Of a stretch of DNA of 20,376 nt, positions 1 to 19,046 are shown piece by piece. This stretch comes from a virus. Its lineage: Duplodnaviria; Heunggongvirae; Uroviricota; Caudoviricetes. The notes beneath the pieces were generated by a model. It was not told where the DNA came from, ran no database searches, and saw nothing but the letters and a program-made list of their open reading frames with translations. Both the position numbers and the translations under genes were made by a program. Numbering within the stretch: the stretch's first letter is position 1; every line of letters starts with the position of its first letter. The DNA is taken from positions 1-20,376 of the IMG/VR virus record IMGVR_UViG_2877973648_000005. One strand, 5' to 3'.

Positions 1-477
1 ATGAAACTCATCAGTAACGATCTGCGCGATGGCGATAAATTGCCGCATCGTCATGTCTTTAACGGCATGGGTTACGATGGCGATAATATTTCACCGCATC
101 TGGCGTGGGATGATGTTCCTGCGGGAACGAAAAGTTTTGTTGTCACCTGCTACGACCCGGATGCGCCAACCGGCTCCGGCTGGTGGCACTGGGTAGTTGT
201 TAACTTACCCGCTGATACCCGCGTATTACCGCAAGGGTTTGGCTCTGGTCTGGTAGCAATGCCAGACGGCGTTTTGCAGACGCGTACCGACTTTGGTAAA
301 ACCGGGTACGATGGCGCAGCACCGCCGAAAGGCGAAACTCATCGCTACATTTTTACCGTTCACGCGCTGGATATAGAACGTATTGATGTCGATGAAGGTG
401 CCAGCGGCGCGATGGTCGGGTTTAACGTTCATTTCCACTCTCTGGCAAGCGCCTCGATTACTGCGATGTTTAGTTAA
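1..477 (+). CDS. ybhB: YbhB, Raf-kinase-inhibitor-like (PEBP/YbhB-YbcL family) protein
   Basis: 158-aa ORF whose translation matches E. coli YbhB as I remember it; it is the known neighbour of the lambda attachment site on the bio side. Confidence 0.88.
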   Translation: MKLISNDLRDGDKLPHRHVFNGMGYDGDNISPHLAWDDVPAGTKSFVVTCYDPDAPTGSGWWHWVVVNLPADTRVLPQGFGSGLVAMPDGVLQTRTDFGKTGYDGAAPPKGETHRYIFTVHALDIERIDVDEGASGAMVGFNVHFHSLASASITAMFS

Positions 478-567
478 TCACTCTGCCAGATGGCGCAATG
501 CCATCTGGTATCACTTAAAGGTATTAAAAACAACTTTTTGTCTTTTTACCTTCCCGTTTCGCTCAAG

Positions 568-582
568 TTAGTATAAAAAAGC
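568..582. other. attR core (lambda att 15-bp common core, reverse complement of GCTTTTTTATACTAA) with B' arm gctcaag to its left
   Basis: ttagtataaaaaagc at 568-582 is identical to the core at 19032-19046 and in the same orientation; flanked on the left by CTTGAGCGAAACG-type attB sequence. Confidence 0.85.
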
Positions 583-899
583 TGAACGCGAAACATTAAA
601 AACCATTAATATCAATGTGTTACAATATCTTTAGTCTAAAAAATAGACTACATGATGCTACAAAACACAACATATCCAGTCACTATGAATCAACTACTTA
701 GATAGTATTAGTGACCTGAGACAGAGCATTAGCGCAAGGTGATTTTTGTCTTCTTGCGCTAATTTTTTGTTATCAAACATGTCGCACTCCAGAGAAGCAC
801 AAAGCCTTGCAATCCAGTGCAAAGATTTGTGTGCCTCAGTTTTGTCTAAGTGTTCTACTGAAAACATAGTAAAATCGGCAACAGCTGGAAATCATTCAA
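583..899. other. Prophage right-end remnant: diverged lambda-like attP P arm plus ~180 bp of b-region DNA, ending at the IS1 junction
   Basis: Reverse complement resembles the lambda P-arm sequence (CTGTTACAGGTCACTAATAC...CATAGTGACTGGATATGTTGTGTTTT) with substitutions; no ORF. Confidence 0.7.
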
Positions 900-914
900 G
901 GTAATGACTCCAAC

Positions 915-1418
915 TTATTGATAGTGTTTTATGTTCAGATAATGCCCGATGACTTTGTCATGCAGCTCCACCGATTTTGAGAACGACAGCGACTTCCGTC
1001 CCAGCCGTGCCAGGTGCTGCCTCAGATTCAGGTTATGCCGCTCAATTCGCTGCGTATATCGCTTGCTGATTACGTGCAGCTTTCCCTTCAGGCGGGATTC
1101 ATACAGCGGCCAGCCATCCGTCATCCATATCACCACGTCAAAGGGTGACAGCAGGCTCATAAGACGCCCCAGCGTCGCCATAGTGCGTTCACCGAATACG
1201 TGCGCAACAACCGTCTTCCGGAGACTGTCATACGCGTAAAACAGCCAGCGCTGGCGCGATTTAGCCCCGACGTATCCCCACTGTTCGTCCATTTCCGCGC
1301 AGACGATGACGTCACTGCCCGGCTGTATGCGCGAGGTTACCGACTGCGGCCTGAGTTTTTTAAGTGACGTAAAATCGTGTTGAGGCCAACGCCCATAATG
1401 CGGGCTGTTGCCCGGCAT
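915..1418 (-). CDS. insB: IS1 InsB frame (expressed as InsAB' by -1 frameshift)
   Basis: 167-aa ORF overlapping insA in the -1 frame, as in canonical IS1. Confidence 0.88.
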
Positions 1419-1612
1419 CCAACGCCATTCATGGCCATATCAATGATTTTCTGGTGCGTACCGGGTTGAGAAGCGGTGTAAGTGAACTGCAGTTGCCATG
1501 TTTTACGGCAGTGAGAGCAGAGATAGCGCTGATGTCCGGCGGTGCTTTTGCCGTTACGCACCACCCCGTCAGTAGCTGAACAGGAGGGACAGCTGATAGA
1601 AACAGAAGCCAC
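1337..1612 (-). CDS. insA: IS1 InsA (transposition repressor / N-terminal part of the InsAB' transposase)
   Basis: 91-aa [46 protein letters not shown]..., the canonical IS1 InsA. Confidence 0.92.
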
Positions 1613-1699
1613 TGGAGCACCTCAAAAACACCATCATACACTAAATCAGTAAGTTGGCAGCATCACCTTCAATCCGCATGAATTTAAAAAAGACAATTT

Positions 1700-1737
1700 T
1701 TAGAAATAAGCCGGATAAAAAAATAGCTTTATCCGGC
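1700..1737 (-). terminator. Rho-independent terminator downstream of corA
   Basis: Dyad GCCGGATAAA / TTTATCCGGC followed on the minus strand by a T-rich tract, immediately after the corA stop. Confidence 0.55.
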
Positions 1738-1744
1738 ACTCATA

Positions 1745-2695
1745 TTACAACCAGTTCTTCCGCTTAAAGTACAGATACGGTGCCAGGCCCGCGAGGATCA
1801 TAAAGATAATCGCGGCAGGGTAGCCGAAGCTCCACTTCAGTTCTGGCATAAACTCAAAGTTCATGCCATAGCTGGAAGCAACGAGCGTCGGCGGCAGGAA
1901 TACCACGGATACCACCGAGAAGATTTTGATGATGCGGTTCTGCTCGATGTTGATAAAACCCATTGCCGCCTGCATCAGGAAGTTCACCTTCTGGAACAGG
2001 GATTCGTTATGCGGCAGCAGGGATTCGATATCTCGCAGGATTTCACGCGCCTGCTCCAGTTGCCCACCCGGTAAACGCGCTTTACGCACCAGGAAGTTGA
2101 GCGCGCGCTGGGTATCCATCAGACACAGGCGAACTTTCCAGCCGATATCTTCCAGTTCCGCCAGAGTGGAGAGCGCCTCGTCGTACTCATCGCCCTGATG
2201 CCCTTCCATAATCACCCGGCTCAACTGCTCCAGGTCGCTATAGATATTTTCAATTTCATCTGCCAACTGTTCGATTTTGGTTTCGAACAGATCCAGCAGC
2301 AACTCGTAGGCGTTACCGTCTACCATCGACTGGCTACGGGCACGCATACGATACAGACGAAAAGCGGGCAGTTCACGCTCACGCAGAGTAAACAGACGAC
2401 CATCACGGATGGTAAATGCCACAGTGGAGTTACCGGCGTGATCTTCCGCATCTTCAAAGAAGAAGAAGGAGTGAATATGCAGGCCGTCGTCGTCTTCAAA
2501 GAAACGTGCCGATGCTTCGATGTCTTCCAGTTCCGGGCGGGTTGCCAGGCTCTGGCCAAGTTCAGATTGTAAGCGCAGTCGCTCGTCGTCGTCCGGTTCG
2601 ACAAGATCAATCCATACTGCATTTACAAGGGGTTGTGACTCTTCGACTTCCAGCCGGGTCAGTCGGTTATTTTCCAGTTGAAATGCGCTCAGCAT
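1745..2695 (-). CDS. corA: CorA magnesium/cobalt transporter (316 aa, GMN motif)
   Basis: Translation [20 protein letters not shown]...[18 protein letters not shown]...KRKNWL matches E. coli CorA. The ORF track's upstream Met adds 5 codons; the native start is taken as 2695. Confidence 0.9.
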
Positions 2696-3064
2696 GACCG
2701 GGACTCCCAATGCTTAAAATATCGGACAGTTCGGTGGGCACACAGAAACAAATTGGGTTTCAGACCATTAAACAGCCTGACTCAGCGCGACGGGAAAAAT
2801 TGAGGTCGCTGACAACCGCTAAGGCTATCAGCAAAAAGGGATAGCCTTAGGAGTTGATCCTGGATGACAGGATAGTGAGCCAGTATCTACTGGGTGTGTC
2901 CAAGGCGAATGTCCTCTTAGAGTGATCGTGCGCGCATGTTACGCCAGCAAAATTTTGCCGTCAACACGCAACAGAACACCACAGAACAATAGTTGAACTT
3001 CGCGCTTTTTGGTACTCGTCAAGGTCGCTAACAGGATAAAAAAATCCCACATCCAGGACCTATA

Positions 3065-3352
3065 ATGGCGCATCAGCTACTCATTGGTAAAGGAATGATC
3101 ACCTTGAATCTCAAACGGATTTTTCTCGCCCTCACCTTACTTCCCTTGTTTGCTGTTGCCGCTGATGATTGCGCACTCTCAGATCCGACGCTGACCGTAC
3201 AGGCGTATACCGTTAATCCTCAAACAGAGCGGGTGAAAATGTACTGGCAAAAAGCCAATGGCGAAGCGTGGGGAACGTTACATGCTCTGCTGGCGGATAT
3301 TAATAGTCAGGGTCAGGTGCAGATGGCGATGAACGGCGGCATCTATGATGAA
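3065..3352 (+). pseudogene. 5' fragment of a signal-peptide protein gene divergent from corA (possibly yigE), truncated by the IS1 junction
   Basis: ORF with a signal-peptide-like N-terminus (MITLNLKRIFLALTLLPLFAVAA) runs directly into the IS1 inverted repeat at 3353; its last 9 codons in the ORF track (GDAANLLI) are encoded by IS1. The yigE assignment is from remembered K-12 gene order only. Confidence 0.5.
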
Positions 3353-3407
3353 GGTGATGCTGCCAACTTACTGATTTAGTGTATGATGGTGTTTTTGAGG
3401 TGCTCCA

Positions 3408-3683
3408 GTGGCTTCTGTTTCTATCAGCTGTCCCTCCTGTTCAGCTACTGACGGGGTGGTGCGTAACGGCAAAAGCACCGCCGGACATCAGCGCTATCTC
3501 TGCTCTCACTGCCGTAAAACATGGCAACTGCAGTTCACTTACACCGCTTCTCAACCCGGTACGCACCAGAAAATCATTGATATGGCCATGAATGGCGTTG
3601 GATGCCGGGCAACAGCCCGCATTATGGGCGTTGGCCTCAACACGATTTTACGTCACTTAAAAAACTCAGGCCGCAGTCGGTAA
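3408..3683 (+). CDS. insA: IS1 InsA
   Basis: Identical 91-aa translation to the InsA at 1337-1612. Confidence 0.92.
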
Positions 3684-4105
3684 CCTCGCGCATACAGCCG
3701 GGCAGTGACGTCATCGTCTGCGCGGAAATGGACGAACAGTGGGGATACGTCGGGGCTAAATCGCGCCAGCGCTGGCTGTTTTACGCGTATGACAGTCTCC
3801 GGAAGACGGTTGTTGCGCACGTATTCGGTGAACGCACTATGGCGACGCTGGGGCGTCTTATGAGCCTGCTGTCACCCTTTGACGTGGTGATATGGATGAC
3901 GGATGGCTGGCCGCTGTATGAATCCCGCCTGAAGGGAAAGCTGCACGTAATCAGCAAGCGATATACGCAGCGAATTGAGCGGCATAACCTGAATCTGAGG
4001 CAGCACCTGGCACGGCTGGGACGGAAGTCGCTGTCGTTCTCAAAATCGGTGGAGCTGCATGACAAAGTCATCGGGCATTATCTGAACATAAAACACTATC
4101 AATAA
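3602..4105 (+). CDS. insB: IS1 InsB frame
   Basis: Identical 167-aa translation to the InsB at 915-1418. Confidence 0.88.
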
Positions 4106-4120
4106 GTTGGAGTCATTACC

Positions 4121-4325
4121 GTTTTTTGGCCCCTTCTATGGTGGCTATAATGTAATCAAACTGGATGATGAGTATAAGTATGCTCTTGTCAGTGGTCCGA
4201 ACAGAGAATACCTATGGATTCTGGCAAGGACCCCAACTATTCCAGATAAAGTAAAAGCAGACTATGTGCGAACCGCTCAAAAGTTGGGATTCAATGTCAA
4301 TGAATTATTATGGGTTAAACAATAA
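4121..4325 (+). pseudogene. 3' fragment of a lipocalin (Blc-like outer-membrane lipoprotein) gene, truncated at the IS1 junction
   Basis: FFGPFYGGYNVIKLDDEYKYALVSGPNREYLWILARTPTIPDKVK...LLWVKQ resembles the C-terminal third of E. coli Blc (FFGPFYGGYNVIALDREYRHALVCGPDRDYLWILSRTP...) but is clearly diverged; there is no start codon outside IS1. Confidence 0.7.
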
Positions 4326-4353
4326 AATCCCTACCCGAAATAATACTTATTAG

Positions 4354-4382
4354 AAAAAAACCAGCCTTTGGGGAGGCTGGCT
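4354..4382 (-). terminator. Rho-independent terminator downstream of Q (tR'-like)
   Basis: Stem CCAGCC / GGCTGG with an 8-nt loop; on the minus strand it is followed by seven T. Confidence 0.6.
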
Positions 4383-4480
4383 AAATCAGGAAACAAGCTG
4401 TTATATGATAATAACTACGTTGCGATTCCAACATTTAAAATGTTAGACTAATGACAATCAGACAGCAACTTTTCCTTTAA

Positions 4481-5084: not shown

Positions 5085-5443
5085 TCATTCCCCATTTCGG
5101 TGATGGTCAGTTCCAGCCTCCCACCTTTGGTAACAGGCATCTTCACAACGCGGTAATCAACGACCTGAGCATCATCCAGCCAGAAACCTGCTTTAGTGAG
5201 TGCGTCAAAAGCGGCTTTTTGCAGATTATCCAGGTCACGGCGACGGCGATCCGGCATGTGGCACTCAATGCGGATTTTCACAGGCATAGCCAGGCCGATA
5301 TCTAGCATTGCGTTTTTAATGATTCGGGCGACGTTATCGCGGTATGCCTGCCCCTCTGCGCTGATGTGCGTGCGTCCGCGATTATGGCGGTAATAGCGAT
5401 TATTGCTCGGAGGCCAGGGTAATGTGATGCTGTAGGTATTCAC
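5081..5443 (-). CDS. rusA: RusA Holliday-junction resolvase
   Basis: 120-aa translation matches E. coli/DLP12 RusA ([26 protein letters not shown]...). Confidence 0.92.
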
Positions 5444-5730
5444 GCCTTAATAACCCCCTCTTTCAGCCAGATAACCTGTGTTCTCGCCATACCTTCCAGC
5501 GCGCATTCTTTTGCATATGCAGCATCGACAAAATGTGTGCGGCGGTCGATTTCGTCGTGGCAGGCAGAACATGCAATGGTGGCAATCAGGTCTGGCGGTT
5601 TGATACCGGTACCGCACAATCCAGCCAGCCGGATATGTGCCAGTACAGACGTCTCAGAATTGCCATTACATACGCCAGGGATTCTTACCTGGCATTCCCG
5701 ACCACGCGCTGCTTTTCTCAAATCAGCCAT
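5440..5730 (-). CDS. ybcO: YbcO-like prophage nuclease (DUF1364)
   Basis: 96-aa translation from [24 protein letters not shown]... matches DLP12 YbcO; the ORF-track start at 5769 is an upstream extension. Confidence 0.85.
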
Positions 5731-7384: not shown

Positions 7385-7879
7385 TCATTTCCAATTGCAA
7401 GACTGTGAAATTTTTTCCACAACCTTATCAATCTCAGACAAGTCAAACTCAACTACTTGCATAGTTGATCCATAAGGTTCAAACCCAAAAATAGCTTTTT
7501 TATGCTTAGCCAAGGTCTTTATAAATTGTATTGGTTGTGGAGCAAATGCAGAATCACCGCCTTCCCCACCTCCCCAAACACTCTTGACCGGCTTTCCGCC
7601 ATCTAACCGCACTGTAATTCTTGGGTTGTCCGAACCCATATAATCATTGAATGATAAATAGGCATCTGTTTTGTTATCACTACAACGCAACACCAGTGAA
7701 GTTGCACGATCAGTACCTGCTTTGTTATATGAATCTGGTGATAAATTAAGAGCCACAAAGTCAGTCTGGTCAGTCATTTTATTTATCTCAGACTTTGTTA
7801 TCCACGGCCCTAACTTCTCTACACCAGCATTTGCTGTAAACGAGGCACTTATAACAAAGGCTAAAATAAATTTTCTCAT
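7385..7879 (-). CDS. Hypothetical secreted protein (164 aa) with Sec signal peptide; moron in the ren/ninA position
   Basis: N-terminus MRKFILAFVISASFTANA is a signal peptide; strong RBS aaggaga; AT-rich codon usage distinct from flanking lambda genes; own terminator. Confidence 0.65.
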   Translation of the reverse strand: MRKFILAFVISASFTANAGVEKLGPWITKSEINKMTDQTDFVALNLSPDSYNKAGTDRATSLVLRCSDNKTDAYLSFNDYMGSDNPRITVRLDGGKPVKSVWGGGEGGDSAFAPQPIQFIKTLAKHKKAIFGFEPYGSTMQVVEFDLSEIDKVVEKISQSCNWK

Positions 7880-8025
7880 AACCCTATCTCCTTGGATTCA
7901 AAGAACTAAATATTATCAAGTCTCTTGCCACTAGAAAACCCACTTTATTTCCAAACTCTGATGGCATTCCTGAAAATCCGCTTCATACTCACTTGCCCCG
8001 CCCTATCATCCTGAGTAGCTAACCG

Positions 8026-8199
8026 TTAAACAAACGTTCGCCAGACCTTACCATCAATGACCAGGATTCCTGCCCGCGTCATTTTTGCCGCAGCCTTATT
8101 TATGCTGGTTAATGTCACACCTGTTGTCGCAGCAACGTCCGGCGCACAGAAGCTCTTGTGCGTCTCCAGATAATGAATAATTGCCTCTTTGCCCGTCAT
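8026..8199 (-). pseudogene. ren: Truncated ren (57 codons; first ~55 residues Ren-like)
   Basis: MTGKEAIIHYLETHKSFCAPDVAATTGVTLTSINKAAAKMTRAGILVIDGKVWRT matches the lambda Ren N-terminus, then diverges to a stop; the ATG overlaps the P stop (ATGA) as in lambda. Confidence 0.65.
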
Positions 8200-12723: not shown

Positions 12724-13509
12724 ATGAGTACAGCACTCGCAACGCTGGCTGGGAAGCTGGCTGAACGTGTCGGCATGGATTCTGTCGACCCACAGGAACT
12801 GATCACCACTCTTCGCCAGACGGCATTTAAAGGTGATGCCAGCGATGCGCAGTTCATCGCATTGTTGATCGTCGCCAACCAGTACGGCCTTAATCCGTGG
12901 ACGAAAGAAATTTACGCCTTCCCTGACAAGCAGAACGGCATCGTTCCGGTGGTGGGCGTTGATGGCTGGTCCCGTATCATCAATGAAAACCAGCAGTTTG
13001 ATGGCATGGACTTTGAGCAGGACAATGAATCATGTACATGCCGGATTTACCGCAAGGACCGTAATCATCCGATCTGCGTTACCGAGTGGATGGATGAATG
13101 CCGCCGCGAACCATTCAAAACCCGCGAAGGCAGAGAAATCACGGGGCCGTGGCAGTCGCATCCCAAACGGATGTTACGGCATAAAGCCATGATTCAGTGT
13201 GCCCGTCTCGCCTTCGGATTTGCTGGTATCTATGACAAGGATGAAGCCGAGCGCATTGTCGAAAATACCGCATACACTGCAGAACGTCAGCCGGAACGCG
13301 ACATCACTCCGGTTAACGATGAAACCATGCAGGAGATTAACACTCTGCTGATCGCCCTGGATAAAACATGGGATGACGACTTATTGCCGCTCTGTTCCCA
13401 GATATTTCGCCGCGACATTCGCGCATCGTCAGAACTGACACAGGCCGAAGCAGTGAAAGCTCTTGGATTCCTGAAACAGAAAGCCACTGAGCAGAAGGTG
13501 GCAGCATGA
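12724..13509 (+). CDS. bet: Bet (Red-beta) single-strand annealing protein
   Basis: 261-aa translation essentially identical to lambda Bet. Confidence 0.97.
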
Positions 13510-14186
13510 CACCGGACATTATCCTGCAGCGTACCGGGATCGACGTGAGAGCTGTCGAACAGGGGGATGATGCATGGCACAAATTACGGCTCGGCGTCAT
13601 CACCGCTTCAGAAGTTCACAACGTGATAGCAAAGCCCCGCTCAGGAAAGAAGTGGCCTGACATGAAAATGTCCTACTTCCACACCCTGCTGGCTGAGGTT
13701 TGCACCGGTGTGGCTCCGGAAGTTAATGCTAAGGCGCTGGCCTGGGGAAAACAGTACGAGAACGACGCCAGAACCCTGTTTGAATTCACTTCCGGCGTGA
13801 ATATTACTGAATCCCCGATCATCTATCGCGACGAAAATATGCGCACCGCCTGCTCTCCCGATGGTTTATGCAGTGACGGCAACGGCCTTGAACTGAAATG
13901 CCCGTTTACCTCCCGGGATTTCATGAAATTCCGGCTCGGTGGTTTCGAGGCAATAAAATCGGCTTACATGGCCCAGGTGCAGTACAGCATGTGGGTGACG
14001 CGAAAAGATGCCTGGTACTTTGCCAACTATGACCCGCGCATGAAGCGTGAAGGCCTGCATTATGTCGTGATTGAGCGGAATGAAAAGTACATGGCGAGTT
14101 TTGACGAGATGGTGCCGGAGTTCATCGAAAAAATGGACGAGGCACTGGCTGAAATTGGTTTTGTATTTGGGGAGCAATGGCGATGA
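13506..14186 (+). CDS. exo: Exo (Red-alpha) 5'-3' exonuclease
   Basis: 226-aa translation essentially identical to lambda Exo; start overlaps the bet stop. Confidence 0.97.
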
Positions 14187-14365
14187 CGCATCCTCACGAT
14201 AATATCCGGGTAGGCGCGATCACTTTCGTCTACTCCGTTACAAAGCGAGGCTGGGTATTTCCCGGCCTTTCTGTTATCCAAAATCCACTGAAAGCCCAGC
14301 GGCTGGCTGAGGAGATAAATAATAAACGAGGGGCTGTATGCACAAAGCATCTCCCGTTGAGTTAA
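14177..14365 (+). CDS. lambda orf60a-like protein
   Basis: [31 protein letters not shown]... matches lambda orf60a. Confidence 0.75.
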
Positions 14366-14529
14366 GAACGAGTATCGAGATGGCACATAGCCTCGCTCAA
14401 ATTGGAGTCAGGTTTGTGCCAATACCAGTAGAAACAGACGAAGAATTTCACACGTTAGCCGCATCCCTTTCACAAAAGCTGGAAATGATGGTGGCGAAAG
14501 CAGAAGCAGATGAGAGAGACCAGGTATGA
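14338..14529 (+). CDS. lambda orf63-like protein
   Basis: [37 protein letters not shown]... matches lambda orf63. Confidence 0.75.
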   Translation: MHKASPVELRTSIEMAHSLAQIGVRFVPIPVETDEEFHTLAASLSQKLEMMVAKAEADERDQV

Positions 14530-14605
14530 CAACCACTGAATGCATTTTTCTGGCAGCGGGCTTCATATTCTGTGTGCTTATGCTTGCCGACATGGGACTT
14601 GTTCA

Positions 14606-14821
14606 ATGACACCTCAGCAGGAAAACGCCCTTCGCAGCATTGCCCGTCAGGCTAATTCTGAAATCAAAAAAGCCAGACAGCAGTTTCCGGATAAAAACGT
14701 CGATGACATTTGCCGTAGCGTACTGAAGAAGCACCGCGAAACGGTAACGCTGATGGGATTCACACCGACTCATTTAAGCCTGGCAATCGGCATGTTAAAC
14801 GGCGTCTTTAAGGAACGATGA
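14606..14821 (+). CDS. lambda orf61-like protein
   Basis: MTPQQENALRSIARQANSEIKKARQQFPDKNVDDICRS... matches lambda orf61; the ORF-track start at 14540 is an upstream extension. Confidence 0.7.
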   Translation: MTPQQENALRSIARQANSEIKKARQQFPDKNVDDICRSVLKKHRETVTLMGFTPTHLSLAIGMLNGVFKER

Positions 14822-14919
14822 ACATGAAAAGCAAAATCATCAGGGAGCTACAGGCTCCTTTTTTATTATTCGCATTCACCCTCAAGCGTATTAACCAACA
14901 ATTCAGGGATTAATGGAAG

Positions 14920-15141
14920 ATGGCAGACATCATTGATTCAGCATCAGAAATTGAAGAATTACAGCGCAACACAGCAATAAAAATGCGCCGCCTGAACCAC
15001 CAGGCTATATCTGCCACTCATTGTTGTGAGTGTGGCGATCCGATAGATGAACGAAGACGCCTGGTCGTTCAGGGTTGTCGGACTTGTGCAAGTTGCCAGG
15101 AAGATCTGGAGCTTATCAGTAAACAGAGAGGTTCGAAGTGA
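14920..15141 (+). CDS. TraR/DksA-family C4 zinc-finger protein (lambda orf73-like)
   Basis: CCECGDPIDERRRLVVQGCRTCASCQ four-Cys motif. Confidence 0.7.
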   Translation: MADIIDSASEIEELQRNTAIKMRRLNHQAISATHCCECGDPIDERRRLVVQGCRTCASCQEDLELISKQRGSK

Positions 15142-15449
15142 GCGAAATTAACTCTCAGGCACTGCGTGAAGCGGCAGAGCAGGCAATGCATGACGACTGG
15201 GGATTTGACGCAGACCTTTTCCATGAATTGGTAACACCATCGATTGTGCTGGAACTGCTGGAACTGCTGGATGAGCGGGAAAGAAACCAGCAATACATCA
15301 AACGCCGCGACCAGGAGAACGAGGAAATTGCGCTAACGGTAGGAAAGCTGCGCGTTGAGCTGGAAGCAGCAAAATCAAAACTCAACGAGCAGCGTGAATA
15401 TTACGAAGGTGTTATCTCGGATGGAAGTAAGCGTATTGCTGAACTGTAG
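15138..15449 (+). pseudogene. ea22: Truncated ea22 (N-terminal 103 codons only)
   Basis: MSEINSQALREAAEQAMHDDWGFDADLFHELVTPSIVLELL... matches the start of lambda Ea22 (182 aa in lambda); it ends where the AT-rich island begins. Confidence 0.65.
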
Positions 15450-15699
15450 GCCTAGGTTGAGTGTACAAGATTTGCATACGTAAGAGCAAAAGACAAGGGA
15501 GAATTGATCAGAGTTATTACCTGCCAACCAACGGGATATTACGCTTACGTACCATGTAACTAGGAATCCTTGAAGTGGCAGCCTAACTGTGGATACACTG
15601 AAATGGCGATTTGGTAACATGTTTCGCACAAGGCTGTTACTACGCTTAGAGATAATCAGTCATGATTAAATGCTTTGTAAAAAGTAAAAGGAAATTACA

Positions 15700-16314
15700 A
15701 TGAAAAAATCAACACTAATTTTAGGGCTTACGTTAATTGTCTCATCTCAAATACCATCGGCAATGGCAAAAAATGAATCAAAACTTTGGGTTGTTGTTGA
15801 TCGAACGGAAAGACATACCTGCCCTTCAAGTAAATGTGGAGTGGCTGGGAAACTATTTTTCAGGGAAGGCGTAGATTTTCTAGAAAAAAAAGGTGAATGG
15901 GTTCGTATAACTGAGCCATATTCAGCCTCATGTGTGGGAGGGGAAAGCGAATATATTAAAGAAGGTAATAAATCCTGCACAAGAAAAAACGGAATCGTTA
16001 ATGGCAAGTTTTCAGAATGGGTTAAACTTAGTGATCTTAGCAGTGAAAGGCCATCAGATCCTGCTGAAAATGCGAGCAGAAATGATACCTTAATCAAAGG
16101 ATCTGATGACTACCGTATATACAAAAAAGAGTTTTCTTCGGCAGCTAGGAAGTTAATAAGTGAAGGTGTCTGCACGGAGAGCGATTTTAAGGAAGTTGGA
16201 GGGTGGATGGCATCAAGCAATAAGGGTGAAAACATCTATTTCACATATTGCGGAGGAATGACGTTGTCGAACAGAATATATCTAGACGTTAAAAGTGGAA
16301 AGACTTTTAGATAA
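15700..16314 (+). CDS. Hypothetical secreted Cys-rich protein (204 aa), cargo gene
   Basis: Signal peptide MKKSTLILGLTLIVSSQIPSAMA; AAGGA RBS; six Cys in the mature part; very AT-rich relative to the prophage backbone. Confidence 0.65.
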   Translation: MKKSTLILGLTLIVSSQIPSAMAKNESKLWVVVDRTERHTCPSSKCGVAGKLFFREGVDFLEKKGEWVRITEPYSASCVGGESEYIKEGNKSCTRKNGIVNGKFSEWVKLSDLSSERPSDPAENASRNDTLIKGSDDYRIYKKEFSSAARKLISEGVCTESDFKEVGGWMASSNKGENIYFTYCGGMTLSNRIYLDVKSGKTFR

Positions 16315-16607
16315 TATGATATTACCAATGACAGCATTAATTTAATGCCTCCATAGAATTATCTCTAGGAAGTAAGTATAAGAAAAGTCCGCACAATGAG
16401 CTGCTGCGGGCTTTGTGTTATTCGCCATATTTTATGAAGCAAATACGACACTATAGATAATTAAGCGTTACTGGTTGTCGATTCCTCACTCATTCCTGCT
16501 GATGGCTGTCTTCTTGTATGTGTCATTGAAGGGTAATATCGCGTAAAAAGATACCGGAAGTATCCGCGCCGCCATGATTGTCTTTCTCCTGATGCAGGAA
16601 AAGCAGA

Positions 16608-16946
16608 ATGACTAAATCAGCAGCAGAGCGCAAAGCCGATCAGAGAGCCAAGCAAGCATCATCCGGTATGCGTAAGCTGGAGCTTGTACTTGATGCTCAG
16701 GAAATTGAAATGCTGGAGCGTAACTGAGCCACGCGCCGCTTCAGGCGTGCGCCTTACGAGTTTGGTGAGTACATAGCGTTACTGAGCCGCCAGGATGATG
16801 CACGTGTGCGCTGGCGTATAAAATCGATTAGCAGAAAACGTTGCCGTAAGTGCGGCGAGAAAGTTCCTGTTAATTCATGCCCGTGTAATGGTGACTCACA
16901 ATACTGGGTGACCAAAGGCTGGCACGAAACAAAATTAATGATATAA
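16608..16946 (+). pseudogene. Zinc-ribbon small protein gene interrupted by an in-frame TGA (39 codons, TGA at 16725-16727, then 72 more sense codons)
   Basis: AGGAAAAG RBS before the ATG at 16608; the same frame continues after the TGA to a TAA at 16944-16946 and encodes CRKCGEKVPVNSCPCNG. Neither half alone reaches 60 aa. Confidence 0.4.
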
Positions 16947-16974
16947 ATCTCTGTGACATGTCACGGAGGCGGCA

Positions 16975-17403
16975 ATGAAATTAGACCAGCAATATCTAAA
17001 AGATCTACTTATCGCATTCGAAAAAACTTATGGCCCTGACACGATGCTTAGTGAACTAGAGGATAATGGCTTTAATAGATATGACCAAAATTTTATTTTC
17101 CATATGCGATTATTATGTGACTACGAATTAATAGTTAGGGTTGATGGAAAACCTGGGTTCGGTCATATAATGTCCAACGAGTTAGGGGAAGGTGTTGAAT
17201 ATAGTTGGATCGAAGTACCACTGAGGTTGACAGCAAGAGGGCATGATTTTATTGCTGACTTACGTCAAAAGGAGGTCTGGCAAGCTATAAAAACAAACTT
17301 TAAGGATGAGGGGATTAGTACTCTTATGAGTGTTTCAAAATCACTAGCAAAAGGCTTTGCAAGAAAAAAAATAAAAGATATTACAGGAATAGATATTGAA
17401 TAA
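16975..17403 (+). CDS. Hypothetical cytoplasmic protein (142 aa), cargo gene
   Basis: Strong GGAGG RBS; AT-rich; followed by a terminator; no recognisable family from sequence alone. Confidence 0.65.
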   Translation: MKLDQQYLKDLLIAFEKTYGPDTMLSELEDNGFNRYDQNFIFHMRLLCDYELIVRVDGKPGFGHIMSNELGEGVEYSWIEVPLRLTARGHDFIADLRQKEVWQAIKTNFKDEGISTLMSVSKSLAKGFARKKIKDITGIDIE

Positions 17404-17448
17404 TTCTTAGCATAAAGCAACTACTGCCTTTGGTGAAAATTATATCTG

Positions 17449-17471
17449 AACTCGCTACGGCGAGTTTTTTT
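17449..17471 (+). terminator. Rho-independent terminator after the 142-aa gene
   Basis: CTCGC-TACG-GCGAG hairpin followed by TTTTTTT. Confidence 0.6.
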
Positions 17472-17511
17472 ATGGAGATGATAAATGCACTTCCGAGTCA
17501 CAGGTGAATAG

Positions 17512-17652
17512 AATGGAGAACCATTCAACAGAGTTATCGAAGCCGAGAACATCAGCGACTGCTATGACCACTGGATGCTGTGGGCGCAGATAGCACATGC
17601 AGACGTAACCAATATTCGAATTGAAGAACTGAAAGAACACCAAGCCGCCTGA
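17512..17652 (+). pseudogene. Start-less 3' remnant of an Ea8.5-like gene
   Basis: 46 sense codons (...ISDCYDHWMLWAQIAHADVTNIRIEELKEHQAA*) bounded upstream by TAG with no initiation codon; lies where lambda ea8.5 sits relative to xis. The Ea8.5 assignment is from position and memory only. Confidence 0.4.
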
Positions 17653-17665
17653 TGGCGGTTTTTTC
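17644..17665 (+). terminator. Rho-independent terminator upstream of xis
   Basis: CCGCC-TGAT-GGCGG hairpin followed by TTTTTT. Confidence 0.5.
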
Positions 17666-17691
17666 TTGCGTGTAATTGCGGAGACTTTGCG

Positions 17692-17910
17692 ATGTACTTG
17701 ACACTTCAAGAGTGGAACGCTCGCCAGCGACGCCCAAGAAGCCTTGAAACAGTTCGTCGATGGGTGCGCGAATGCAGGATATTCCCTCCTCCGGTTAAGG
17801 ATGGAAGAGAATATCTGTTCCACGAATCAGCGGTAAAGGTTGACTTAAATCGACCAGTAACAGGTAGCCTTTTGAAGAGGATCAGAAATGGGAAGAAGGC
17901 GAAGTCATGA
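17692..17910 (+). CDS. xis: Xis excisionase
   Basis: MYLTLQEWNARQRRPRSLETVRRWVRECRIFPPPVKDGREYLFHESAVK... matches lambda Xis; overlaps the int start. Confidence 0.95.
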   Translation: MYLTLQEWNARQRRPRSLETVRRWVRECRIFPPPVKDGREYLFHESAVKVDLNRPVTGSLLKRIRNGKKAKS

Positions 17911-18958
17911 GCGCCGGGATTTACCCCCTAACCTTTATATAAGAAACAATGGATATTACTGCTACAGGGACCCAAGGACGGGTAAAGAGTTTGGATTAGG
18001 CCGAGACAGGCGAATCGCAATCACTGAAGCTATACAGGCCAACATTGAGTTATTTTCAGGACACAAACACAAGCCTCTGACAGCGAGAATCAACAGTGAT
18101 AATTCCGTTACGTTACATTCATGGCTTGATCGCTACGAAAAAATCCTGGCCAGCAGAGGAATCAAGCAGAAGACACTCATAAATTACATGAGCAAAATTA
18201 AAGCAATAAGGAGGGGTCTGCCTGATGCTCCACTTGAAGACATCACCACAAAAGAAATTGCGGCAATGCTCAATGGATACATAGACGAGGGCAAGGCGGC
18301 GTCAGCCAAGTTAATCAGATCAACACTGAGCGATGCATTCCGAGAGGCAATAGCTGAAGGCCATATAACAACAAACCCTGTCGCTGCCACTCGCGCAGCA
18401 AAATCAGAGGTAAGGAGATCAAGACTTACGGCTGACGAATACCTGAAAATTTATCAAGCAGCAGAATCATCACCATGTTGGCTCAGACTTGCAATGGAAC
18501 TGGCTGTTGTTACCGGGCAACGAGTTGGTGATTTATGCGAAATGAAGTGGTCTGATATCGTAGATGGATATCTTTATGTCGAGCAAAGCAAAACAGGCGT
18601 AAAAATTGCCATCCCAACAGCATTGCATGTTGATGCTCTCGGAATATCAATGAAGGAAACACTTGATAAATGCAAAGAGATTCTTGGCGGAGAAACCATA
18701 ATTGCATCTACTCGTCGCGAACCGCTTTCATCCGGCACAGTATCAAGGTATTTTATGCGCGCACGAAAAGCATCAGGTCTTTCCTTCGAAGGGGATCCGC
18801 CTACCTTTCACGAGTTGCGCAGTTTGTCTGCAAGACTCTATGAGAAGCAGATAAGCGATAAGTTTGCTCAACATCTTCTCGGGCATAAGTCGGACACCAT
18901 GGCATCACAGTATCGTGATGACAGAGGCAGGGAGTGGGACAAAATTGAAATCAAATAA
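17888..18958 (+). CDS. int: Int, lambda-type tyrosine integrase (356 aa)
   Basis: Translation essentially identical to lambda Int (MGRRRSHERRDLPPNLYIRNNGYYCYRDPRTGKEFGLGRDRR...). Intact, so this is not a DE3-type int disruption. Confidence 0.97.
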   Translation: MGRRRSHERRDLPPNLYIRNNGYYCYRDPRTGKEFGLGRDRRIAITEAIQANIELFSGHKHKPLTARINSDNSVTLHSWLDRYEKILASRGIKQKTLINYMSKIKAIRRGLPDAPLEDITTKEIAAMLNGYIDEGKAASAKLIRSTLSDAFREAIAEGHITTNPVAATRAAKSEVRRSRLTADEYLKIYQAAESSPCWLRLAMELAVVTGQRVGDLCEMKWSDIVDGYLYVEQSKTGVKIAIPTALHVDALGISMKETLDKCKEILGGETIIASTRREPLSSGTVSRYFMRARKASGLSFEGDPPTFHELRSLSARLYEKQISDKFAQHLLGHKSDTMASQYRDDRGREWDKIEIK

Positions 18959-19046
18959 TGATTTTATTTTGACTGATAGTGACCTGTTCGTTGCAACAAA
19001 TTGATAAGCAATGCTTTTTTATAATGCCAACTTAGTATAAAAAAGC
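18959..19046. other. attL: lambda P' arm (18959-19031) plus 15-bp core (19032-19046) joined to bacterial B sequence
   Basis: Reverse complement reads ...TGAAGCCTGCTTTTTTATACTAAGTTGGCATTATAAAAAAGCATTGCTTATCAATTTGTTGCAACGAACAGGTCACTATCAGTCAAAATAAAATCATTATT, the canonical lambda core plus P' arm. Confidence 0.88.

Follow-up and report, generated by a model that had tools for sequence, protein, structure and literature searches.

The island between ea22 and orf55 in a decayed lambda-like prophage is probably a recombinational patchwork of unrelated accessory genes

Introduction

The genes of the lambdoid exo-xis region (ea22, ea8.5, orf61 and orf63, together with the Ea22 variants of Stx phages) occupy the same slot, and have the same orientation with respect to the pL operon, as the island analyzed here. 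This slot, extending from ea22 to xis, is a variable region in which backbone DNA is replaced by foreign genes. In lambda Ea22, the C-terminal domain (CTD) comprises residues 102-182, and Ea22 variants are mosaic at the boundary between the coiled coil and the CTD, where the island also breaks ea22 (PMC10834534).

The island lies in a window of 20,376 nucleotides, which is the whole of the analyzed stretch (positions 1 to 20,376 of IMG/VR virus record IMGVR_UViG_2877973648_000005). Three genes are considered: p204, a gp49-like gene and a DUF2513 gene. None of their products is related to the known exo-xis proteins, Ea8.5 included. With morons and exo-xis genes the island shares an AT-rich composition and a hairpin after the p204 gene. 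It is inserted between backbone genes that neighbor each other in related phages, and the GC content of the p204 and DUF2513 segments is deviating (0.36-0.40). Since no independent promoter was found, the correspondence to a moron in the strict sense (promoter, gene, terminator) is incomplete.

Each of the three genes has relatives of its own elsewhere. Endolysins, lysostaphin and NlpC/P60 hydrolases carry SH3b domains that bind the cell wall, and these are among the known systems closest to the island. T4 Spackle (Sp) and prophage periplasmic exclusion proteins are small, Sec-exported, disulfide-bonded proteins acting in the periplasm; p204 may be a functional analog of Spackle, with which it shares neither sequence nor fold similarity. 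In Uetakevirus-like phages, epsilon15 gp49 and phiV10 p55 are encoded by the last early-operon gene, 5' of the gene for the small terminase subunit, whereas the gp49-like gene of the island is relocated into the lambda exo-xis region and inactivated (TGA40, G80R, C99Y). The third protein is a full-length match to DUF2513 (PF10711, phrog_585).

Results and Discussion

Edges and Composition of the Replaced Segment

BLAST against lambda (NC_001416) aligned window positions 13034-15446 with lambda 32500-30096 (97.4%) and positions 17439-19046 with lambda 29333-27724 (98.6%). Between ea22 and orf55, the segment 15447-17438 (1992 bp) stands in place of 762 bp of lambda DNA (29334-30095), and the Ea22 C-terminal domain and the whole of ea8.5 (lambda 29374-29655) were lost. 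The following features were recorded, in window coordinates:

15138..15449, + strand: truncated ea22, 103 codons, stop codon 15447-15449 (Pfam Ead_Ea22, 92.5 bits)
15447..15699, + strand: non-coding AT-rich leader of the p204 cassette, GC 0.36-0.38
15700..16314, + strand: p204, exported protein of 204 aa with a Sec signal peptide, an SH3b domain and a C-terminal alpha/beta domain (all predicted)
16384..16415, + strand: terminator-like hairpin 3' of p204, AAAGUCCGCA...UGCGGGCUUU followed by GUGUU
16460..16570, + strand: umuD'-like (peptidase S24) gene remnant with an internal stop in this copy
16608..16946, + strand: pseudogene of the epsilon15 gp49 / phiV10 p55 type, 112 aa (phrog_536 and phrog_34005, both halves)
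16725..16727, + strand: TGA in frame at codon 40, where the alignment shows a near-invariant Cys (TGT)
16953..16964, no strand assigned: perfect 12-bp palindrome GTGACATGTCAC, inverted repeat I7
16975..17403, + strand: cytoplasmic DUF2513 protein, 142 aa (PF10711, 42.7 bits; phrog_585, E 7e-34)
17439..17470, + strand: right junction and lambda backbone terminator (BLAST against lambda; terminator scan; fold z -4.7)
17485..17652, + strand: homolog of lambda orf55 (lambdap35), with its own ATG at 17485 (compared with the translation of NP_597778)

The left junction falls at 15446/15447, lambda 30096 corresponding to about codon 100 of ea22. The truncated Ea22 keeps the N-terminal segment and the coiled coil, and the C-terminal domain is gone. 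The initial annotation had described a cut to 103 codons, in agreement with the position of the stop codon and with RefSeq, where ea22 is a pseudogene missing its C-terminus. It had also seen lambda sequence stop at 15449 and resume at about 17512; the replacement itself stood, while the edges moved to 15446 and 17439. A supposed start-less Ea8.5-like remnant near 17512 is in fact the orf55 homolog, in which Trp9 is changed to TAG (amber) at 17509-17511 and which RefSeq lists as a pseudogene with an internal stop; ea8.5 is wholly absent. The strong terminator at 17448-17467, formerly counted as part of the island, lies inside the resumed lambda homology and belongs to the backbone.

GC content was 36-40% over 15450-16500 and 16950-17550, compared to 46-53% in the flanks. 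The description of about 2 kb as compositionally foreign was correct for these parts, but not for the gp49-like segment (~16500-16950), which at 49-50% GC did not depart from the flanks.

The host element is a decayed lambda-type prophage at attB-lambda, adjoined by ybhC, and its lysis, head and tail genes are all absent. Besides the gp49-like gene, ren, orf55 and ea22 are pseudogenes, and several small genes are decayed. The assignment of foreign DNA to a variable int-proximal slot was borne out by a real replacement in the exo-xis region of a prophage at attB-lambda, next to ybhC, and the three coding units had been placed correctly, at 15700-16314 (204 aa), 16608-16946 (with the in-frame TGA) and 16975-17403 (142 aa). 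All island genes are co-oriented with the pL operon, which suggests delayed-early transcription at the least.

Recurrence and Origin of the Island

Among 5426 complete E. coli genomes, about 130 carry the block. It recurs in 23 IMG/VR contigs and in the viable sequenced phage Chlobot (96%), where all three genes are intact, and it occupies the equivalent place in these carriers. When the boundaries were compared, the ea22 junction was identical throughout these carriers. Databases, and the sequence of a viable phage, already contained the island, and the earlier view of a novel accessory module could not be maintained. No resemblance to known lambda genes had been noticed, which was correct, but the proteins themselves are not new: all three fall in existing phage families (phrog_8310, phrog_536/34005 and phrog_585/PF10711). 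An NCBIfam scan of all island products returned nothing, and a literature search with the protein accessions turned up nothing useful.

A layered recombinational patchwork of unrelated accessory genes in the exo-xis slot, forming no functional unit, is the likely explanation of the island. The older layer would be a block from another phage type, consisting of the truncated umuD'-like, epsilon15-gp49-like and DUF2513 genes. In epsilon15/phiV10-like and Cronobacter phages, the gp49-like gene, accompanied or not by DUF2513, is located just 5' of the small terminase gene. The AT-rich p204 cassette would have arrived later, truncating the umuD' remnant on its 5' side and joining ea22 at the known Ea22 domain boundary. 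The gp49-like gene was inactivated by one TGT-to-TGA event at Cys40, and it also carries G80R and C99Y.

Other carriers retain traces of the umuD'-like gene. In Chlobot, the equivalent stretch reads LLVVDSSITPVDGSLLVCAIEGEYRVKRYRKYP and is annotated as UmuD-like. A longer version, beginning GFPSPAADY, is found in locus L033, and RefSeq lists a partial 'DNA repair protein' at the position of the remnant in strain PK8568.

The main value of the analysis lies in a correction: the region is an ordinary case of mosaic exchange at the exo-xis slot of lambda, here in a decaying prophage remnant. The junction at about codon 100 also provides a natural CTD-less Ea22, which persists in many prophages and is relevant to published work on Ea22 domain function.

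The p204 Cassette

The predicted Sec signal peptide of p204 is cleaved after AMA, at residue 23. Next come a bacterial SH3 domain (SH3b; roughly residues 28-115), which agrees with SH3_3 (PF08239) in both fold and profile, and an alpha/beta domain at the C-terminus (roughly residues 125-204) without a solved relative. The structure prediction was confident. Six Cys are invariant, and p204 is under purifying selection (pN/pS 0.14-0.21).

A profile search yielded 835 clusters at 50% identity. The E. coli protein is 60-65% identical to its Pseudomonas homologs, which adjoin integrases in Pseudomonas islands; further homologs belong to an Aeromonas prophage or have chromosomal contexts. When the PDB was searched with profiles of p204, the gp49-like protein and DUF2513, the outcome was spurious hits to de novo TIM barrels or nothing. 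Among long p204 relatives, a Pfam scan for informative fusions found zinc-ribbon or ankyrin N-termini only and no enzyme domain, and a PHROG scan of the neighbors of Pseudomonas and Aeromonas homologs was uninformative.

In the leader, no sigma-70 promoter of at least 9/12 matches was found on the + strand, and a relaxed scan gave 8/12 matches only. The hairpin at 16384..16415 folds as RNA at -16 kcal/mol (z -2.1 compared to shuffled sequences) and was not called by a strict terminator scan. The repeats flanking p204 amounted to one imperfect inverted pair of 16 nt (15531 / 16529), which is at chance level, with about 0.6 expected by estimate.

From fold, location and conservation, p204 likely attaches to peptidoglycan by way of the SH3b domain and carries up to three disulfides. 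Its most likely role is that of a moron-type host-benefit or exclusion factor. After Sec export and disulfide formation, the C-terminal domain would act in the periplasm, with the SH3b domain docked on the wall, and p204 would protect the envelope against a wall-acting enzyme entering from outside.

A broader reading would make p204 a widespread extracytoplasmic module and a new kind of envelope-protection factor (phage exclusion or wall-effector immunity), and DUF2513 with its palindrome a new small phage regulator. It draws on the 835 clusters and on the repeated association of the gene with islets next to integrases and with prophages, in Escherichia, Pseudomonas and Aeromonas, and is regarded as rather unlikely. 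As a large, well conserved and mobile family, p204 would be a cheap candidate for phage-exclusion or envelope-stress screening.

DUF2513 and the Upstream Palindrome

The match of the third protein to PF10711 is above the gathering cut-off of 29.6 bits and covers profile positions 1-100 of 100. The reading frame is intact, and the gene is under purifying selection (pN/pS 0.08-0.46). Homologs in Enterobacterales form 113 clusters. A sub-threshold match to Pfam wHTH-PRTase_assc (E 0.048), together with motif reading, suggests that DUF2513 is probably a winged-helix DNA-binding protein.

The palindrome GTGACATGTCAC is placed between the stop codon of the gp49-like gene and the ribosome-binding site of DUF2513. 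It is kept 5' of close DUF2513 homologs in Cronobacter, Yersinia, Serratia and Enterobacter mori. The 3' end of gp49 ('GWHETKL') always precedes it, even where the remainder of gp49 is lost; in Serratia and Enterobacter, this 3' end and the palindrome are retained. Judging from fold, location and conservation, DUF2513 probably binds GTGACATGTCAC in front of its own gene. DUF2513 received a passing mention only in the literature searched, where the upstream palindrome is undescribed. The 12-bp palindrome offers a direct handle on the DUF2513 family.

These observations also bear on the possibility that the gp49-like and DUF2513 genes form a two-gene cassette (regulator and target, or toxin-antitoxin-like), which would be the island's functional core and p204 an unrelated passenger. 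The spacing of 28-31 nt seen for the gp49-like and DUF2513 pair in Cronobacter and Yersinia, and the palindrome, are constant among E. coli, Cronobacter and Yersinia at differing phage positions, and close homologs of DUF2513 invariably come with the 3' end of gp49. However, DUF2513 is intact in many copies and lineages whose gp49-like gene has been inactivated or truncated. An upstream partner that can be lost in this way is not indispensable, as it would be in a toxin-antitoxin pair, and an essential antitoxin or activator role is therefore ruled out.

Sampling of both families led in the same direction. Of 80 phrog_536 loci kept from IMG/VR, 57 carried neither p204 nor DUF2513, and 52 of these were located upstream of a small terminase subunit gene or a 75-aa ORF. 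Conversely, an intact gp49-like gene directly upstream of DUF2513 was found at only 1 of 60 species-level loci. Most members of either family thus lack the other, linkage by descent suffices for their co-occurrence, and a two-gene cassette is considered quite unlikely compared to the patchwork.

Co-occurrence of the Three Genes

A single new anti-phage defense or superinfection-exclusion module, with the three genes working as a unit, would be in keeping with the int/xis-adjacent position, which is a known cargo slot, and with a block held together in the E. coli genomes and viral contigs listed above. Two of the three genes, p204 and DUF2513, are moreover intact and under purifying selection. 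The middle gene, in contrast, has been inactivated in 10 of the 23 copies of the island, with its neighbors intact. Variants without p204 exist (L017, L033), DUF2513 DNA is present and p204 DNA absent in about 50 E. coli genomes, and IS elements disrupt the p204 stretch in several strains.

Co-occurrence of the three genes was not found outside one recombinant lineage: the other two genes were never alongside p204 homologs in Pseudomonas, Aeromonas or metagenomes, and p204 was present at 0 of the 60 species-level DUF2513 loci. A check against PADLOC-DB v2, which had been suggested for the island, gave no defense-system match: none of the five proteins or fragments produced a hit, even with E values of up to 1 allowed. 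Taken together, a joint module is highly improbable.

The Interrupted gp49-like Gene

The phrog_536 match covers residues 1-39 and 41-112, and the C-terminal half of the protein is Cys-rich (zinc-ribbon-like). More than 397 homologs of 112 aa were found, and the gene is 85-93% identical to those for intact 112-aa proteins of E. coli prophages. The phiV10p55 record is annotated as similar to epsilon15p49. The PHROG label of phrog_536, 'transcriptional regulator', is putative. Homology to Ea8.5 was also considered and rejected at an hhalign probability of 0.2%.

Across the 80 phrog_536 loci, codon 40 was TGT in 69, TGC in 1 and TGA in 10. The 10 TGA copies form one clade with more than 96% identity, and both TGA sublineages combine the TGA with a synonymous C at position 129 of the gene. 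This shared 120A-129C haplotype points to a single origin of the TGA allele. The allele in the window also carries G80R and C99Y at conserved positions of the alignment, so that two of the six conserved Cys of phrog_536 are missing (TGA at Cys40, Tyr at Cys99). pN/pS was 0.5-1.4 for the gene and about 1 in the TGA lineages.

Independent disruptions were found at L034, with a stop at codon 79, and at L035-37, which are truncated; TAG and frameshift lesions affect neighboring genes of the same remnant. RefSeq lists the gene as a pseudogene with an internal stop. Taken from its sequence, the gp49-like gene with TGA is a pseudogene under relaxed selection, and the zinc-ribbon ORF that the initial annotation had counted as a cargo unit becomes a pseudogene of a common phage gene.

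Recoding of codon 40, by selenocysteine or programmed read-through with the full-length protein still made, would account for the exact coincidence of the TGA with a near-invariant Cys, which is the classic arrangement of Cys/Sec pairs. The frame downstream is open in 10 of 10 TGA copies, and a small hairpin follows. A Cys codon can become a stop via TGA only, so the Cys position is by itself uninformative; the open frame fits a recent pseudogene, yet taken alone would also permit read-through. In bacterial SECIS elements, the SelB-binding stem-loop begins about 11 nt downstream of the UGA. The hairpin here starts about 5 nt after the TGA, too near for such an element, its stability is at the level of shuffled sequences (z -1.0), and an Rfam search at this position returned no family.

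With a weak hairpin, no Rfam match, a single-origin haplotype in place of maintenance across diverged lineages, loss of the conserved G80 and C99 in the same allele, pN/pS near neutrality and lesions in the neighboring genes, the selenocysteine/SECIS reading was rejected and recoding of any kind is scarcely credible. The in-frame TGA marks a dead allele rather than a recoded one.

Boundaries of the Foreign Stretch

BLAST against lambda matched positions 13034–15446 to lambda 32500–30096 and positions 17439–19046 to lambda 29333–27724. Because the matches end at 15446 and restart at 17439, the foreign stretch comprises 15447–17438 (1992 bp). In lambda its place is taken by 762 bp that hold the final ~82 codons of ea22, all of ea8.5, and the spacer between them. 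The initial annotation had recognized this interruption of the lambda backbone, and its limits (15450–17475) were close, although the edges required correction. The following features were located:

15700–16314: p204, a predicted secreted protein of 204 aa, full-length match to phrog_8310
~16460–16570: umuD'-like (peptidase S24) gene remnant, lying 3' of p204 and 5' of the middle gene
16608–16946: middle gene, both halves matching phrog_34005/phrog_536
16953–16964: perfect 12-bp palindrome GTGACATGTCAC, directly before the ribosome-binding site of DUF2513
16975–17403: DUF2513 gene (PF10711 at 42.7 bits; phrog_585 match)
17485–17652: homologue of lambda orf55 (lambdap35), Trp9 changed to TAG at 17509–17511

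The supposed start-less Ea8.5-like remnant at ~17512 is in fact orf55, with its ATG at 17485, and the terminator at 17448–17467, previously counted as part of the island, lies within lambda DNA. Foreign composition was evident for the p204 and DUF2513 segments (GC 0.36–0.40) but not for the middle gene, whose GC is normal (0.49–0.50).

On the left, the island joins lambda Ea22 at codon ~100. The C-terminal domain of Ea22 spans residues 102–182, and Ea22 variants have the N-terminal and coiled-coil parts in common, with completely different sequence beyond (PMC10834534). As the junction matches this domain limit, the abrupt cut in ea22 uses a known mosaic boundary. The island genes are oriented as the pL operon, and promoter scans yielded no convincing promoter for any of them.

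Distribution of the Island

Of 5426 complete E. coli genomes, 130 contained the whole 2.4-kb query at 96–100% identity. The same block, at 96% and flanked by the same neighbours, occurs in the viable sequenced phage Chlobot. In 23 IMG/VR contigs the order was traR, ea22 (103 codons), p204, gp49-like gene, DUF2513, orf55, xis, int; the identical ea22 junction in all of them indicates one ancestral event.

By the initial annotation's own criterion, the reading as a novel three-gene module is unsupported and indeed refuted: a sequenced lambdoid phage and numerous prophages carry the same block as a normal constituent of their early region. The island genes would fall in a known class, exo-xis accessory genes or morons. 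Defence cargo had also been considered; PADLOC gave no match among the island products, nor did an NCBIfam scan.

When complete E. coli genomes were searched separately, p204 DNA was present in 133 and DUF2513 DNA in 185, so some prophages carry DUF2513 without p204 (for example, loci L017 and L033). In several strains, including ATCC 8739, the p204 stretch is broken by IS elements. Plasmid records of E. coli, including large ones of 191 kb and 304 kb, also contain the p204/DUF2513 block, with 11 plasmid places in total, which suggests phage-plasmids or lambda-type prophages that had integrated into plasmids.

The Middle Gene and Its In-Frame TGA

The middle gene belongs to the phiV10 p55/epsilon15 gp49 family, with homologues in >397 clusters of 112 aa in Enterobacteriaceae prophages. 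Kinship with Ea8.5 was rejected, the two being unrelated on comparison. Among 80 loci kept from IMG/VR, the gp49-like gene immediately preceded the small terminase gene in 30, was followed by a 75-aa ORF in 22, and was followed by DUF2513 in another 22, all of the lambda-island type.

Alignment of homologues showed codon 40 to be a near-invariant Cys, encoded in the 80 loci by TGT (69) or TGC (1) and replaced by TGA in ten. The ten TGA copies form two sublineages within a single clade (>96% identity). That the two share a linked synonymous change at gene position 129 points to one mutation that spread by recombination.

Recoding of this TGA would preserve a full-length product, and a hairpin does begin ~5 nt past the stop; its z of −1.0 is no better than shuffled sequence, and an Rfam scan of 15300–17750 gave no match. 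The window allele also carries G80R and C99Y at conserved positions, pN/pS within the island clade was 0.5–1.4, and other copies were disrupted independently (locus L034 by a stop at codon 79, L035–37 by C-terminal truncation). Recoding is accordingly regarded as very improbable, and it was concluded that the middle gene is a pseudogene in the window. Chlobot retains TGT, G80, and C99.

In the Chlobot record, the intact 112-aa gp49-like gene (5166–5644) is not annotated; the calls made instead are a "UmuD-like protein" ORF in another frame and a 46-aa fragment labelled "transcriptional regulator". The orf55 product agreed with the lambda protein at mostly 98% in island loci with a TGT gp49-like gene and at 95–96% in window-type loci.

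DUF2513 and Its Upstream Palindrome

DUF2513 homologues formed 113 clusters across Enterobacterales, and pN/pS was 0.08–0.46. A sub-threshold wHTH match and the conserved segment "PLRLTxxGHDF" suggest that the protein may adopt a winged helix.

In Cronobacter prophages, an intact gp49-like gene and DUF2513 form a pair with a 28-nt gap, immediately ahead of the terminase gene, and the same pair is found in Yersinia frederiksenii. In Serratia and Enterobacter mori, the last gp49 codons ("GWHETKL") alone are left before DUF2513. The palindrome is conserved in five genera (Escherichia, Cronobacter, Yersinia, Serratia, and Enterobacter), with coding sequences just 65–75% identical; more distant DUF2513 genes have neither the palindrome nor the gp49 3' end. 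The palindrome may be an operator, and we infer that DUF2513 most likely acts there, at its own palindrome, as a small DNA-binding protein. No p204 was found near DUF2513 in 60 species-level loci.

The p204 Family

Homologues of p204 occur in Pseudomonas and Aeromonas at 60–68% identity, with more distant ones in metagenomes, and searching 1.84 billion representatives with a profile returned 835 clusters (E ≤ 1e-3). Every member begins with either a Sec signal peptide or a lipobox, and six Cys are invariant. Longer relatives have added zinc-ribbon or ankyrin N-termini and contain no enzyme domain. The pN/pS of 0.14–0.21 within the island clade indicates that the gene is maintained, and a terminator-like hairpin lies 3' of it.

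Elsewhere, the neighbours of p204 homologues are unrelated to the middle gene and DUF2513. In small islets of Pseudomonas, the homologue directly followed a tyrosine integrase; others were found within an Aeromonas prophage, among IS elements, and in housekeeping surroundings. Once, in metagenome locus L162, a homologue lay between umuD-like and umuC-like genes, so that p204 and umuD-type genes are neighbours twice. The umuD'-like remnant is readable in Chlobot, and a longer copy starting GFPSPAADY is present in L033 (3223–3678). In Pseudomonas monsensis (L004, 1156–5971), two tandem pyocin S/DUF6572/immunity gene sets were observed immediately upstream of the integrase–p204 islet.

The fold of p204 (an SH3b domain and a C-terminal domain without a solved relative) and its export signal were established. 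The protein would be exported by Sec, disulfide-bonded, and docked on peptidoglycan in the periplasm, where its novel C-terminal domain might act on or shield the envelope. Its most likely predicted role in the periplasm is in exclusion or in benefit to the host. Both the p204 family and the palindrome before DUF2513 offer modest leads.

Origin of the Island

The data fit a layered mosaic. A umuD'-remnant/gp49-like/DUF2513 block would have been imported from another phage type, and an AT-rich p204 cassette would later have been fused to ea22 at the limit between its domains. What links the three island genes is descent within one lineage, not function.

The Host Prophage and Its Decay

The window is nearly identical to E. 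coli TC24 (NZ_CP171637, 3332595–3352970), with 24 mismatches, mostly within an IS1 copy. The lambda-type prophage remnant sits at attB-lambda, between ybhB and ybhC, in the order Q antiterminator, nin region, P, O, immunity region, gam-bet-exo, exo-xis region, and xis-int. All late genes are absent from the remnant, with no lysis, head, or tail genes, and an IS1-flanked segment bearing corA occupies their place. Four genes (ren, ea22, orf55, and the middle gene of the island) are pseudogenes according to RefSeq. Two genes of the nin/ren region were noted:

7931–8199, minus strand: ren, with a frameshift and an internal stop
7385–7879, minus strand: gene annotated "type VI secretion system-associated protein TagO"

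The lesions in ren are further evidence of prophage decay, while the TagO-annotated gene is a probable additional accessory insertion. At positions 1–4400, between ybhB and Q, two IS1 copies flank corA and ysgD, and a lipocalin gene fragment is also present. Both corA and ysgD map elsewhere in K-12, and the arrangement resembles either a composite element or the product of a rearrangement mediated by IS1.
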